NCBI GenBank assembly: GCA_010356995.1
Contig: ML996689.1
Span: 1,072,691 to 1,136,690, forward strand
Direction of reading: 5' to 3'
Length of the DNA stretch: 64,000 nt
Source of the DNA: Trichodelitschia bisporula
Taxonomy: Eukaryota
Made by a program: the position numbers and the translations under genes. Of this stretch, positions 42,543 through 55,936 are shown in pieces (position 1 is the stretch's first letter; every line of letters begins with the position of its first letter). The notes under the pieces are model-generated. The model ran no database searches. It saw only the letters and a program-made list of their open reading frames with translations, and was not told the DNA's origin.

Positions 42543-43960
42543 TGTGTGAAGTTTAGAAGTGGGTTGGTGAGGATGTTGGGGAAGTGGGGTTCTAATGTGT
42601 TTAGTGTTTGAGGGAGTGAGCGAGGGAGGGAAGGGGAGTGAACTGACTCTTGCTGTGATAGATGATAGTGATATATTAGCACAAAGAGTGCGCCAGCAGT
42701 ACGATGAAGTGTATGATCAAAAGTGTCTGATGACGACCTCAGCTATCCTCCGGCTGACTATGTATCTCGGAATGGTTGCCAAGGGTAAACTATGGAGAAG
42801 GTGCTAGGATGTCAAAGTGACAAGTGCAAACTAACACTAGGGAAGTTGTGGCGACCTCAACACGTGCCTTCCATCTGATATATATGGATGGCGAGATGCT
42901 TGCTGAGATTGTTGAAGTGGGTGGTTATGGATTCTGCGGACGTCAAGTGATACTTTGAGTGGGTAGGACAGCTTCCTGAGTACGGACAGCAGACTGCTTT
43001 TATAGGGCTTCAGGACTCACTGCCTTGTATGTGGCCTTCGGCACGTGCGTGTCCTTTGAAGGCAAGGGCCCCTCTGACACGTACATGTCGGTTTCTGACT
43101 TCGGCCATTAGAGTTCAGTGCCACCGATAGCAAGGTAGCCAGATGTACGTGAGGGAGGGGACCTGTGGAGTTGGTCCTCAGGTAGGGGTGGAGGGTGTTC
43201 GAGGGGTGGTGTATGTACCACGGCAGTGTCCAGCCGGATGTCTATCCAGTTACCGCTGAAGTTCCACACGTCAGGTAAGGATCATCGGAGGCGATGGTGA
43301 CGTTCTTTGCCTTGACGGAATCGGTACTTCGGCTCATTCCATTAGCGTCCAGCGCCATTGAAAGCAGTGTAATCAGAGTACGTACCTCGGTCCAGAGTCG
43401 ATATCTGGTGCTTGAACCAAAGTTCCCCTCAAGAAAGCGTCCCCTACCGACATTGTTCGAGTATTACGCATTACGAAGCCTCCAAGTCATTTTAGTCGTG
43501 TTGTTATATCAACAATGGGACCGGGAACCTAAGGCGTACCTCGTTCCAGACTCACAATTCTTCGACCCACGGCGAAGCGAAGTACGCGGAGAACACGTAT
43601 CGACTCACGAGATCTTCGAATCGTGTCATCAGGGTGACTATCACTGTTGCGACCATAGAACAAGCACTATGCTTTCATCTCAGCAGGGTGCTATCATCAT
43701 CTATGCGGACATGAACCAAACACCATACCTCAGCCCAAAGACCAGCAAAACCAAGACTAAACTCCACGCCACATTAATGAACTCCGGGTATCGGCGCCAG
43801 CAGAACACCGCCAAACGCCGAGGGAGGCACCCAAAGATGCTCCATGCACACCATGCAAAGAGACCGTCACCCTCTCGCTCCTTCCCGGCCCCACCTTTCC
43901 CCTTACCCACACGCTAGCCACCCCTAACCCACCGTCCCGCCACAAAACACCACATCCACA

Positions 43961-45490
43961 TCATCCATAGGAACCTACTCCCAATTCCTCACTCTCCCCA
44001 ACCCACCCTCTCCTTTCCTCTCGGCCACTCTCCCCCTTCCTCCCCCACCTCACCAAACCTCCCCACCCCTCATCTCCCACTCCCACCCAAACCCCCCCAT
44101 CATCCATCCACGTCCCCCCCGCCACAACACCAAACACATCCAACCCCTGCCTGGCCCCCCACGTCACCCCATCCACAACCCCCACCCCATCCGCTCCCTC
44201 TCCCACCAGCAACAACCGTCTCCCCGCCCCAAGCGGACTGAAAGCCACACTCCTAACAACCTCACTACTCGCCCCCCACCCCGCAACCACCTTCCGCCAC
44301 ATCCGCGCATCTCTAATCCGAACCCCATCCTCCCCCCCCACCGCAACCGCAAACCCATCCCCCGCCCAATCAACCCCAAACCCCGGCCCAAGCCCCGCCC
44401 ACTCCTCCACAACACCCCTCCGCCCCGCGCGCGCATCGAGCACCGCCCCCCCACCCCGATCCCCAGTACATAGTCTAACCCGCCCACACGGCCCCGTTAC
44501 CGCGCAGTTCACCGGCCACTTAACCCGCACTTCGGACACCCACTTCCCGGTCTCGATATCCAAACCTCTTATGCCTCCATCGTTACTCGTGAACACCACA
44601 CCCCCACCGCCACCGCCCGGTGGCACATGCACATGATTCACAATCTGCCCCCTGTCTCCCACCTTCCCCACCAACCCAGGCGCATCCCTCTCCGCCTGCA
44701 AATCCAGCAGCGCGAAACTCCCACCAAAACTCCCTGCCGCAAGAACACCCCCACCAGCCGCAAGACACGTCGTCCGGAACCCCGCCGGCAGCGGTAGGCG
44801 CTCCATCGCCCCGTCAGGCGCGGCGTGAACCAGCCCGGAGCGCGAAGTGGTGTACAAATCATAAGCCGAAGACGCAGTAACCAAGTGCCTGAGCTCGCGA
44901 TGCTCAACCCACGGCACCGGCTCCGCAAGCATGCGCTCGAACCCCAAAAACGCACTCCCCGCCTCCGGCAGCGGCGGGACCGCAGGCCAGGGCACGCTTC
45001 GGGCAAAGTACGCAGCGCGCTGGGCGCGGGCCGTGGCGCGGGTCGTCCCGAGCTGGGTCCAGGGTATGGCTTGTGGGTCGGTGACGGGCGCGGTGATGAG
45101 CGGGGGCCGCGCGTGCTGGAGCGGGGCGAGGGTGGGCAGCGGGGCGGTGGGACGCTCGCCGTGGAGGTGGCTTAGGTGCCAGAGGCGGAGGAAGGAGTTC
45201 ATGTCGTGGTTGCGGTCGGGGGGGTGTCGGGGGGTGGGGAGGTAGGTGGGGGAGGCGGAGCGCGGGGCGGAGGGTGAGGGGAGGGAGGAGGTTAGGAGGG
45301 GCGTTGGGGTGAAGGTTGGTCCGGGCGGGGTGAGGGCGAAGAAGGTGTTGTGGATTTGAGGGGGTGGAGGCGGTGGAGGCGGTGGAGGCGGGAGGTGGTA
45401 TGTGAGGGCTTCGAGGGGCGGTGGTGGTAATGGTGGTGAGGTGGTGAGGGTGGTGGGGCCGCCGGCGGGGCGGTATGGTGTTGATTGCAT
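43961..45490 (-). CDS. DUF2415-type WD40 beta-propeller protein, 509 aa
   Basis: HRELRHLV, LAAGSFGGSF, IVNHVH, FTSNDG, WPVNCA, TGD, FGVDWAGDG..VAVGGEDG.RIRDAR, VRSVAFSP..LLVGE.AD.V.VVD. Confidence 0.82.
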   Translation of the reverse strand: MQSTPYRPAGGPTTLTTSPPLPPPPLEALTYHLPPPPPPPPPPPQIHNTFFALTPPGPTFTPTPLLTSSLPSPSAPRSASPTYLPTPRHPPDRNHDMNSFLRLWHLSHLHGERPTAPLPTLAPLQHARPPLITAPVTDPQAIPWTQLGTTRATARAQRAAYFARSVPWPAVPPLPEAGSAFLGFERMLAEPVPWVEHRELRHLVTASSAYDLYTTSRSGLVHAAPDGAMERLPLPAGFRTTCLAAGGGVLAAGSFGGSFALLDLQAERDAPGLVGKVGDRGQIVNHVHVPPGGGGGGVVFTSNDGGIRGLDIETGKWVSEVRVKWPVNCAVTGPCGRVRLCTGDRGGGAVLDARAGRRGVVEEWAGLGPGFGVDWAGDGFAVAVGGEDGVRIRDARMWRKVVAGWGASSEVVRSVAFSPLGAGRRLLLVGEGADGVGVVDGVTWGARQGLDVFGVVAGGTWMDDGGVWVGVGDEGWGGLVRWGRKGESGREERRGWVGESEELGVGSYG

Positions 45491-53588: not shown

Positions 53589-55936
53589 CTAGAGTCCCAG
53601 CTTCCCCAACAACCCCTTCTTACTCTTCTGCTTATCACCCCCATTCCCCGACCCAGACCCCCCACTCGCCGCATCCCTTATAACAGCCAGGCGCTGCTTC
53701 GCCCGCTCCTCGCCCTGATCCGCCGCCTTGACGTACCACACATTAGCATCGAGGGTATCCTGCCGACACCCGATGCCAATCTCCTTGAAGTACCCGACCG
53801 CATACTGCGCCTTGGCGTAGCCTTGTCGAGGTCAGTAACCATACGAAAACCGAACCACCAGGAACGCAACTCACCAAGATCCGCCGCCCTCTTCGCCCAC
53901 TCAAACGCCTCCCCCTCATCCTTAGGAAGCACCGGCTCCGCCCCAAAAAGATACCACGCACAAAGTGCCATCATCGCCTCCGGAAGCCCTGCCTGCGCCG
54001 CGCCATTATAAAAATGAATGGACAACGCCGCATCCTTCGGACACTTAAGCAACCCATGCTCATACGCCTTCCCCATCACCAAATTCGCCTCCGGATGACC
54101 CAAATCCGCAGACTGAGTAAACAACTGCGCAGCATAAACCTCGTCCTTGAAAATCTCATCCCCGAACCCATGCTCATGCAGCTTCCCCAGCTCATACGGC
54201 GCGCTATTGTACTGCCCATCCGCATTCTCCGCCGCGCGCTTCAACCACTTGATCCCCTCGCGCCGCTCCTCACGCGTCCCACTCAGACCCAGCAACCCCT
54301 CGATCAGCGCCACACCCAGCCGACACGCGGCACCGGGATGTCCGCGCGCCGCGGACGCGCGGTAGAACTGCTGCGCCTTGAGGTAGTCCTTGCGACACCC
54401 CCATCCGAACTCGTAGCACAGGGCGGCGCGGAACCCGCTCTCGGCGTGCATGTGCTTGGACGCGGCGAGGAAGAGCGGAAACGCGCGATCGTAGTCCGGC
54501 TTGCCCTTGTTGAAGAGGCCTGACGAGAAGCCGTCGGCCAGATAGTACTGCGCAAAGGGGTAGCTGCGGTCGGCGAGCTTCTGCAGCACATGGCGCGCCT
54601 CGCGGATGAGCTCGCTGCGGGACAACTGCCCAGGCTGGCCCTGGCCCGTCGGCTCGTCGGGCGGAAGCTCCATGGCGGTTTGGATCATGAAGATTGCGAA
54701 TTCATATTGCACCTCCGGCTCAGTCGTTTTCTTCAGATTAGCGCGGTACATTTCGAGGGTTTGGGATGTTTTGAGCAGCGATGCGTTGGAACCGACGGCA
54801 CGACGGAGGAACGAGTTGTCCAGCTGCGGAGCGGGAGCTGTTTGCTGGTGATACGGGACGTGGCTTAGGAGATCCACATATGACATAGGGCGGTGATCCG
54901 GCGAGTGCCGGTTGGCTGAGAAGCCGCGAGCAGACAGTCGCGGGGACGGAGTCCCATTAACAGGCGACGCACTCGACCCAATTCCCAGCCGAGGCAACGA
55001 ATTTCGACCATGAGAGCCATCTGAACCCGAGCCGACAGTCAGCGCAGACCGGGGACGCTGCGGTACGCTGGAATCATCGCCATCGGTTGGCACGCGCAGA
55101 TGTGGGGGCGTGGGTCCGCGGCTCTCGGCGCTCACGGGCGACACTCGCGCCTTCTCCTTCGGCGGCACACTTGGCGGAACATAAGGCTGATGTGCGTATT
55201 GCAGGGCAGGATATAACTCGGCCGGCTGCTCCTCCTCATCCAGCACGGCCGGTTCATCTGGCACCGAAGCCTCCGTCACCGAAGCGATTTCCGCCGCTTG
55301 CGAGGGCGGAACGGCATCCGACGCCTGGCGGATATGCTCAACGCGAATGGGCAGCGTTTGCGTCGGCGGAATGGTCATGCTCGAGTCGCGCAACGACGGC
55401 TCCGGCGTCTCGAGCTCGCGCGACGGCGTGGACTGTCCATCCGAGCTTGTCGGCGTCATGTTGCCCGCGCGCGCAGCGGCCAGAGCAGCGCTGTCGACGG
55501 TGCCTGAGCTCTTGCGCGGAACGTGGTGGTACTGTTGTGGGCGCAACGAGCCTTGCGCTGCCGCTTGGTTGTCGCCAACGCTCCCGCTGTAGCTATGGAC
55601 GGGGAATCCGCGGGTGCTGGTACCGACGCTGCTGCTGTTGCTAGGAGGCGGTTTGCGTGGAATGAACGGCTTGCGGGAGAAGTTGTGAGCCGCCGCCGCG
55701 ACGGGGGCCTGCTGCGGAGCTTGATACGAAGCTTGGTGCGAAGCCTGGTGTGACGAGGATCGTGGAGGGAAGGCCTGGTGTTGTTGCACCTGCGTAGCGC
55801 CGACGCCGTCGAGTGGAATCTTAGGAGGAAGGGGAGGGAGGGACCGCTGAGCTGGGCCAGGCGGTGGCAAGGGAGGAAGAGAATGGGTCATATCGAAGTT
55901 GAAGGGCACCGGCGGCGCACCGGCGGCTGAACTCAT
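53589..55936 (-). CDS. Sel1-repeat chitin synthase activator (Chs4/Skt5-like), ~764 aa, 2 exons
   Basis: RPMSYVDLL, TLEMYRANLKK, LADRSYPFAQYYLADG, AASKHMHAESGFRAALCYEFGWG, AMMALCAWY. Intron 53822-53874 (GTGAGT..CTGAC..AAG) gives GYAKAQYAVGYF..ANVWYVKAADQG; stop at 53589-53591. Confidence 0.93.

Follow-up and report, generated by a model that had tools for sequence, protein, structure and literature searches.

A C-to-G strand gradient along the genes of a 64-kb window from Trichodelitschia bisporula

What makes the strands of a gene-dense piece of fungal DNA swing between extremely C-rich and extremely G-rich composition, back and forth within a few hundred bases? This question is raised by a stretch of 64,000 nucleotides from Trichodelitschia bisporula (GenBank assembly GCA_010356995.1, contig ML996689.1, positions 1,072,691 to 1,136,690 of the forward strand), which we call the window as a whole and in which positions are counted from the first letter. 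An initial annotation, made from the letters alone, had described the alternation of G/T-rich and C/A-rich blocks as independent of gene direction, and had proposed recurrent double-strand breaks or bidirectional replication origins, together with the deamination of single-stranded cytosine, as its source. We find that the asymmetry is real and highly non-random, but that it follows the genes, which run from C-rich to G-rich along their own coding strands, and that this gradient is far stronger than in the orthologs of other fungi. All skew results below refer to this single 64-kb window and to its ~17 approximate gene models, which are based on open reading frames (ORFs) and of which three are incomplete at the 5' end.

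Strand asymmetry of the window and its relation to the genes

The standard deviation (sd) of the GC skew, (G-C)/(G+C), in 200-bp windows is 0.273, compared with 0.110 in 50 shuffles within 5-kb blocks, and the absolute skew exceeds 0.4 in 91 of the 639 such windows (shuffles: mean 0.12, maximum 2). The 60-bp base counts of the initial annotation proved exact, namely, 39 C and no G at 44041-44100, 41 G and 4 C at 45241-45300, and 37 C and 2 G at 47941-48000. Using a 300-bp smoothing and an absolute skew of at least 0.3, we called 41 skewed blocks on the + strand, among which all 17 previously listed block positions (7 C-blocks and 10 G-blocks) were recovered. The blocks are 0.1-1.1 kb in length, alternate every few hundred bases to ~3 kb, and have the highest GC content in the region (0.60-0.75).

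Runs of a second sample and study align with this sequence at 95-100% likeness and differ from it at one base, which excludes an assembly artefact; a sequencing artefact was rejected on the same grounds. We also rejected the expansion of tandem repeats as the source of the blocks, because the repeats are short (each at most 46 bp) and few (25 rows in 14 kb), and repeat-induced point mutation (RIP), a C-to-T process accompanied by strong AT enrichment, in view of the GC content of the blocks. G4-type motifs number 31, about double the count in shuffles (mean 16, maximum 23), an excess to which we gave no weight. A sawtooth form, with sharp G-to-C and gradual C-to-G transitions, was sought in the gaps between adjacent blocks, where both kinds of transition span ~0.15-1.5 kb without a clear difference.

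The blocks are anchored to the orientation of the genes. Along the coding strand, the GC skew of the last 300 bp of the coding sequence (CDS) minus that of the first 300 bp has a mean of +0.45 and is positive in 15 of the 17 genes (Wilcoxon p=0.0003), and the difference between the downstream and the upstream 300-bp flanks is +0.25 and is positive in 12 of 16 genes. The earlier observation that genes on both strands start C-rich and end G-rich is thereby confirmed, while the assertion that the pattern is independent of gene direction has to be given up, since it is along its own coding strand that each of these 15 genes runs from C-rich to G-rich. When the blocks rather than the genes are counted, 23 of the 41 fit the 5'-C/3'-G arrangement, 6 are discordant and 12 lie where we have no gene model (binomial p=0.002 on the 29 assigned blocks). 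One of the discordant blocks (3290-3792) corresponds to a C-rich internal Pro/Ser/Thr linker in a gene coding for an isochorismatase and 2OG-Fe(II) oxygenase fusion.

The C-to-G transitions fall within genes. Of the 13 switches from G to C that separate neighbouring called blocks, ~10 fall in intergenic DNA or in untranslated regions (UTRs), according to a manual comparison of the block and gene lists. The rotational symmetry around mostly intergenic G-to-C switch points that had been described is thus present in the window, but it is the arithmetic result of the gradient in each gene and is no evidence for a gene-blind process: a unit that is first C-rich and then G-rich reads C-then-G on the complement too, and therefore both gene orientations look alike on the + strand, with the G-to-C switches between genes. 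The 3' skew is +0.09, +0.51, -0.06, +0.03 and +0.34 at five convergent gene ends, and +0.37, +0.27, +0.03, +0.80 and +0.34 at five tandem ends, a sample too small to be decisive.

Silent sites, untranslated regions and proteins

At fourfold-degenerate sites the GC skew is correlated with that at codon positions 1 and 2 (r=0.52, p=1e-16, 222 bins of 40 codons). Far from vanishing at synonymous and non-coding sites, the skew persists both at fourfold sites and in UTRs, which supports a footprint at the level of DNA rather than of protein. The RNA evidence used for the UTRs consists of contigs of two runs that were guessed to be RNA and show spliced joints; among the listed records that contain this DNA, none is labelled as RNA. 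These contigs give neither the ends nor the strand nor the level of transcripts. On the minus strand, joints with GT..AG ends are found at 48793-48839 (in both of these runs) and 53821-53873, and neither in the DNA run; they fix the models of a HECT gene and a Sel1 gene, respectively, and give RNA-covered UTRs. Some edges of the skew appear to lie near the contig ends at 47426, 53193 and 45978, a weak hint only, which we did not use as evidence. The features on which the argument rests are as follows.

43961..45490, - strand: WD40-like ("DUF2415"-type) gene, a single ORF of 509 codons with the most extreme ramp of the window
43758..44751: C-rich block of the + strand, made up of the G-rich 3' part and the downstream flank of the WD40-like gene; mean skew -0.61, 200-bp minimum -0.87
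45087..45505: G-rich block of the + strand, corresponding to the C-rich 5' part of the WD40-like gene; mean skew +0.58
47811..51049, - strand: HECT ubiquitin-ligase gene, two exons and a 47-nt intron (48793-48839); Pfam HECT 2.2e-52
47426..47810, - strand: HECT 3'UTR, to whose end at 47426 the RNA contig reaches; GC skew +0.44 and TA skew +0.30 on the coding strand
51050..51533, - strand: HECT proximal 5'UTR, C+T-rich on the coding strand; GC skew -0.41, TA skew +0.26
53587..55936, - strand: Sel1-repeat (Skt5/Chs4-like) gene with an intron at 53821-53873; Pfam Sel1 6.3e-27; 3' quarter G-rich at silent sites
53193..53586, - strand: Sel1 3'UTR, G+T-rich; GC skew +0.44, TA skew +0.37 (measured on 53193-53588)
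55937..56634, - strand: Sel1 5'UTR, RNA-covered, with a C-rich coding strand; GC skew -0.48; the G block of the + strand is at 55724-56801
30003..31493, - strand: Cdt1 gene, Pfam CDT1_C 3.9e-21; fourfold skew by quarter -0.43, +0.19, +0.48, +0.31
36879..38548, + strand: M20 peptidase gene with a C-rich start and a G-rich last quarter; blocks 36796-37098 (C) and 38321-38694 (G)
2558..5443, - strand: isochorismatase and 2OG-Fe(II) oxygenase gene; fourfold skew by quarter -0.17, -0.19, -0.42, +0.47

The ramp at silent sites is most evident in the WD40-like gene, where the fourfold GC skew of the coding strand, taken per 60 codons, goes through -0.64, -0.79, -0.12, +0.43, +0.84, +0.64, +1.00 and +0.93 within a gene of 1.5 kb, of which RNA contigs cover 44423-45978. 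In the Sel1 gene, the fourfold skew from codon 541 onwards is +0.83, +0.79, +0.39 and +0.67. Even the M20 peptidase, a conserved enzyme, has 24 G and 29 C at the fourfold sites of its first quarter, and 36 G, 6 C, 1 A and 11 T (skew +0.71) at those of its last quarter. The HECT gene holds two successive C-to-G ramps, with fourfold skews of +0.88 and +0.87 in 49249-48890, -0.73 in 48889-48663, and then values rising up to +0.73. The reversal from +0.87 (49069-48890) to -0.73 (48889-48663) takes place within ~200 bp, lies inside the HECT domain and spans the only intron of the gene.

In the UTRs, the two RNA-covered 3'UTRs (HECT and Sel1) are G+T-rich on the coding strand and have the same GC skew, as listed above, while the 5'UTR of the WD40-like gene is only slightly negative (-0.07), compared with those of HECT and Sel1. 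In human CpG-island promoters, the coding strand downstream of the start is reportedly G-rich, the opposite sign to that of the 5' ends here. As to the second base pair, the G/T versus C/A axis of the initial annotation stands at fourfold sites, where the T-A skew co-varies with the G-C skew (r=0.46), but not window-wide, where the correlation between GC and TA skew is r=0.11. A exceeds T in 13 of the 17 C-blocks, T exceeds A in only 11 of the 24 G-blocks, and the 5'UTRs are C+T-rich, not C+A-rich.

The skew drags the amino-acid composition along. Termini rich in Pro, Thr and His at the N-end and in Gly, Val, Trp and Arg at the C-end had been claimed for three proteins of the window, and we find them in the WD40-like protein and in Cdt1, the effect in HECT being weak: P+T+H residues number 51 in the first and 3 in the last 100 residues of the WD40-like protein, 38 and 7 in Cdt1, and 21 and 10 in HECT, and G+V+W+R residues number 7 and 59, 8 and 38, and 25 and 35, respectively.

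Amplitude in comparison with other fungi and with known patterns

A gradient of the same sign is known from fungi. [quoted passage not shown] This bias is seen at fourfold sites, extends into promoters and 3'UTRs and alters the terminal amino acids. All of these features, namely, the 5'-C/3'-G coding strand, the fourfold sites, the reach into UTRs and promoters and the shift in terminal amino acids, are found here, and the window very probably displays this published gene-end GC-skew pattern in an extreme form. What had been noticed initially is therefore the rediscovery of a published phenomenon, and T. bisporula is an exceptional member of it. There are also differences: the species is outside the list of McLean & Tirosh, the proportion of significant genes is higher (12 of 17 versus 33%, see below), the silent-site skew reaches +1.0, the HECT gene has two ramps with a reversal, and T-A co-varies with G-C at silent sites, whereas in their data the AT skew is flat and A is correlated with G.

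To compare amplitudes, we applied the shuffle test of McLean & Tirosh (1000 shuffles per gene, 100 bp per end, top 5%), under which 12 of the 17 genes are significant (binomial versus 0.33, p=0.0017). The same test returned 33% of genes in Candida albicans, a strong example, 14% in Saccharomyces cerevisiae and 7.5% in Schizosaccharomyces pombe (PMC3315797). In addition, we collected 80 orthologous Sel1/Skt5-like loci from metagenome contigs and counted silent sites at aligned codons. The silent-site skew of Sel1 codons 541-687 is +0.84, compared with -0.12 ± 0.24 (sd) and a maximum of +0.64 in the orthologous loci, and the skew of the 500 bp downstream of the gene is +0.46, compared with +0.09 ± 0.09, none of 70 loci being as high; in codons 330-540 the silent-site skew is ordinary with respect to the orthologous loci. 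The absolute skew is above 0.4 in 14.3% of the 200-bp windows here and in 3.3% of those from 42 other fungal loci of at least 5 kb, and above 0.6 in 3.1% and 0.43%, respectively.

The same comparison was made at the protein level for the WD40-like gene, whose homologs were gathered by an exhaustive HMMER search and compared by the GC skew that their amino acids imply in aligned columns. The implied skew by segment is -0.28, +0.13, +0.54 and +0.59, while 130-149 homolog representatives have 0.02, 0.02, 0.13 and 0.23 (sd 0.08-0.09). The gradient of the implied skew amounts to 0.87, versus 0.21 ± 0.11 and a maximum of 0.60 in 130 homologs. Among 18 homologs, the C-terminus of the HECT protein has the highest G skew in two of its four segments. 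Thus, orthologs in related fungi do not show the same amplitude, since none of the 80 loci is as high at the Sel1 silent sites and none of the 149 homologs is as high in the last two segments of the WD40-like protein, and the lineage-specific footprint proposed in the initial annotation is supported as far as amplitude is concerned. A second lineage with a pronounced gradient may exist, as one orthologous metagenome locus from another fungus (L058, 62% identity) has a silent-site skew of +0.64 and a downstream skew of +0.44. Among the named orthologs, those of Tothia and Venturia are the nearest.

The nearest non-self homolog of the WD40-like protein is only 35-38% identical to it, and the "DUF2415" label (PF10313) that it had been given is not upheld: the match scores 13.2 bits (E=0.086), under the Pfam gathering cut-off of 20.5, and only one of six scanned homologs (P0004, 23.1 bits) passes. 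The Pfam WD40 profile matches five of these six homologs with E-values from 6.6e-10 to 2.8e-5 and the sixth with 0.0036, while the protein of the window has no match at E<=1. The drift in composition makes this protein difficult to identify by profile.

The public models of two of these genes deviate from the ORF or RNA evidence at skewed 3' ends, a coincidence for which we make no causal claim. The public WD40-like model (P0001) is 100% identical over residues 1-469 and then departs from the ORF, its last 31 residues being encoded near 43095; it implies an intron of ~1 kb that spans a small spliced minus-strand gene with RNA-supported introns at 43333-43385 and 43479-43538, and no RNA joint for the ~1-kb intron is present among the joints listed. 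The public HECT model (P0151), of 962 aa, closes with a short tail of unrelated sequence, whereas RNA-supported splicing of the 47-nt intron only gives 1063 aa through the end of the HECT domain; the public model seems to fail in the most G-skewed 3' part (47811-48792).

Between the WD40-like and HECT genes, an RNA contig without a Pfam-bearing ORF covers 46311-46883, and the surrounding 46000-47250 is a C-then-G unit of its own, which may be an unannotated or non-coding transcript. The intergenic DNA at 45960-46320 contains a (CGCCC)n repeat together with long homopolymers of G and of C, and DNA-run contigs break or skip at 46089-46203. Upstream of the Sel1 gene, a perfect (GGAGA)x7 repeat occupies 56646-56681; the DNA and RNA contigs both end there, so that the 5' boundary of the Sel1 transcript is provisional. 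The assembly has a gap (a run of 50 N) at 41212-41261. Products of the window identified with Pfam include an OPT transporter, the isochorismatase/2OG-oxygenase fusion, SRAP, Med1, Cdt1, the M20 peptidase, the HECT ligase, the Sel1-repeat protein, a chitin-synthase-4-like protein and others.

Two further reports share part of the pattern. In the portion of Fujimori et al. 2005 (PMC555766; plants and fungi) considered here, the coding strand is C-rich at and upstream of the gene start, as in the window, but that portion presents a 5' peak only, with neither a G-rich 3' counterpart nor a ramp at silent sites. The portion of Ginno et al. 2013 (PMC3787257, human) considered here describes a G-rich non-template strand at gene 3' ends, as in our genes, and ties it to R-loops and termination. 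A literature search at the level of records returned no work after 2011 that resolves the cause of the opposite 5' and 3' skews of fungal genes, and a search of the same kind on R-loops, GC skew and fungi returned nothing on fungal gene-end skew; the literature on T. bisporula, judged by titles and abstract openings, contains nothing about composition.

Possible causes of the gradient

In order to characterize the underlying substitutions, we classed the bins independently by their skew at codon positions 1 and 2 and compared the most C-rich with the most G-rich class at fourfold sites. From the former to the latter, G rises from 21.7 to 52.1% (+30 points) and T from 15.7 to 21.9% (+6), while C falls from 42.7 to 17.3% (-25) and A from 19.9 to 8.7% (-11). 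Since the purine content shifts by ~19 points, transitions alone are insufficient. The GC content at fourfold sites (GC4) is not lowered with the skew (r=+0.13). We also polarised the one-step changes at the amino-acid level in the most skewed region of the WD40-like gene (codons 291-490), taking the homolog consensus as the ancestor. This set of 23, which is small and filtered by selection, consists of 8 C>G, 5 T>G, 4 A>G, 2 C>T, 2 G>C, 1 C>A and 1 G>T, so that 17 of the 23 are changes from another base to G (N>G). Cytosine deamination to thymine, that is, C>T together with its G>A mirror image, is therefore not the main driver that it had been proposed to be, since GC4 is unchanged, G replaces C, and only 2 of the 23 changes are C>T. 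A better fit is an exposed strand from which C and A are lost, for the most part to G.

Overall, the explanation that we find best, and consider probable with some reserve, is a gene-anchored 5'-C/3'-G gradient, exceptionally strong in T. bisporula, that comes from a strand-asymmetric mutation or repair bias; that the cause is mutational and linked to transcription units is, taken by itself, about an even call. Such a bias would have opposite polarity at the start and at the end of a transcription unit. The non-template strand would lose C and A and gain mainly G close to the 3' end, and close to the 5' end the template strand would undergo the same change. A possible source would be the exposure of single strands, at 3' ends by sense R-loops or termination and at 5' ends by antisense or promoter-proximal events, the antisense transcription being purely conjectural. 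McLean & Tirosh left the cause undecided between a position-dependent, transcription-linked process of mutation or repair and an adaptive ramp of C-avoidance (PMC3315797).

Several observations weigh against this explanation. The window was chosen because it looked odd, and it has only 17 genes; of the 29 assignable blocks, 6 do not fit. The reversal in the middle of HECT is not predicted by a single gradient per transcript. At the protein level, the shifts in the highly conserved Sel1 region are small: in three of four segments the protein of the window falls outside or close to the limits of 119 orthologs, but in the last segment 89 of the 119 are equal or higher. The polarised spectrum rests on 23 nonsynonymous changes of one gene, and the Sel1 and HECT C-termini, with 4-10 one-step changes per region, give no direction. 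In addition, the mismatch in AT skew suggests that the process may differ from that behind the 2011 pattern, although we regard it as a secondary and not a defining feature. Finally, the correlation with expression is very weak in the published data (R ~0.07-0.1; PMC3315797), and therefore gives poor support to a simple transcription-coupled cause.

An alternative, built on the initial annotation, is that almost all intergenic regions undergo recurrent, possibly meiotic, double-strand breaks, where 5' resection would expose the top strand to the left and the bottom strand to the right, and damage to the single-stranded DNA (ssDNA), made permanent by repair synthesis, would leave G/T on the left and C/A on the right. 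The geometry that this predicts is identical to that seen, including the predominance of intergenic and UTR positions among the G-to-C switches; the block lengths suit resection tracts, and the HECT flip could be accommodated as an intragenic hotspot. Moreover, the part of Hinch et al. 2023 (PMC7615360) considered here reports strand-asymmetric C>N and A>N changes on the resected strand over ~2 kb in the flanks of human meiotic hotspots, with peaks of C>G and of A>G at 700-800 bp from the centre, which agrees with the fourfold-site shift and the N>G excess here. Both cases share, within that part of the source, a mirror-image asymmetry over 1-2 kb on each side and a loss of C and A with prominent C>G and A>G; what is described there, however, are de novo mutation rates at PRDM9 hotspots, while we see a fixed compositional sawtooth whose units coincide with genes. 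Breaks and transcription units predict identical signs for tandem, divergent and convergent genes, and therefore the geometry of one window cannot separate the two models; nothing in the window favours breaks over transcription units. Against breaks, hotspots would be needed in convergent 3'-3' spacers as well, as such spacers adjoin the 2OG-oxygenase and M20 genes, whose silent sites at the 3' end are skewed by +0.47 and +0.71, respectively. In yeast, hotspots cluster in spacers that contain promoters. C. albicans is not known to have a complete meiosis, whereas promoter hotspots are well mapped in S. cerevisiae and S. pombe. The skew goes the opposite way, being strong in the former and weak in the latter two (PMC3315797). 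The C>T chemistry that the initial annotation had attached to the breaks is not seen either, given the GC4 values and the two C>T changes above. On balance, we regard recurrent breaks as an unlikely cause.

An adaptive gradient, in which selection would favour C at the start and act against C at the end of genes, for instance through a ramp for a CTP-limited Pol II, an unstructured G-poor 5' region or G-rich pausing and termination at the 3' end, is one of the two hypotheses of PMC3315797. It would be expected, as a feature at the level of RNA or transcription, to skew UTRs as well as CDS, as is the case here, and the twofold excess of G4-type motifs would suit it. However, a gradient that leaves a conserved WD40 protein without a match to the Pfam WD40 profile, and that itself lies ~4 sd from orthologs, is hardly a tuned benefit, the mid-gene reversal in HECT contradicts a monotonic ramp, and the coupled loss of A and gain of T at silent sites is not expected from C-avoidance, which together make selection of this kind improbable. 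It is very unlikely that the cause lies in the proteins only, i.e., in disordered Pro/Ser/Thr N-termini, Gly/Val/Arg C-termini and codon preference without a regional bias of the DNA: some blocks do track protein content (the linker at 3290-3792, a Glu/Asp-rich acidic ORF and a coiled-coil protein), but the same skew is present at fourfold sites and in UTRs, and in the M20 gene the silent sites go from G24/C29 to G36/C6. Least credible, to the point of being nearly negligible, is a skew from replication origins or termini, or an artefact of sequencing or assembly. DNA contigs do break at C/G homopolymer runs, but the runs of the second sample have one difference, and the tandem repeats are short. 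The replication skew of bacteria and mitochondria lies on the same keto/amino axis (G+T versus C+A) as the silent sites here, but its G+T-rich leading strand extends over whole replichores and its C-to-G switch lies at origins, whereas our units are 1-3 kb and the intergenic switches are G-to-C. The bidirectional origins that had been proposed would give a skew of opposite polarity that extends over tens of kb, while the 41 blocks alternate every few hundred bases to ~3 kb, far more densely than origins are spaced.

As a more speculative idea, which we consider rather unlikely, the units of the skew may not be mRNAs but recurrent domains of ssDNA exposure, either resection tracts or paired zones of sense and antisense R-loops, combined with an overactive or poorly repaired ssDNA-specific N>G mutagenesis of this lineage. 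A candidate for such mutagenesis is abasic-site bypass of the Rev1 type. If this were true, the sharp silent-site reversals, including that at ~48.89 kb in HECT, would be a fossil map of such sites that can be read from the sequence, and the species would be a natural model for the cause of fungal gene-end skews.

The bias in the window is strong enough to erode protein domains that are otherwise detectable by profile. Since the effect is several-fold stronger than in relatives, a small data set from T. bisporula could discriminate between the hypotheses on the origin of the opposite skews at the two ends of fungal genes.

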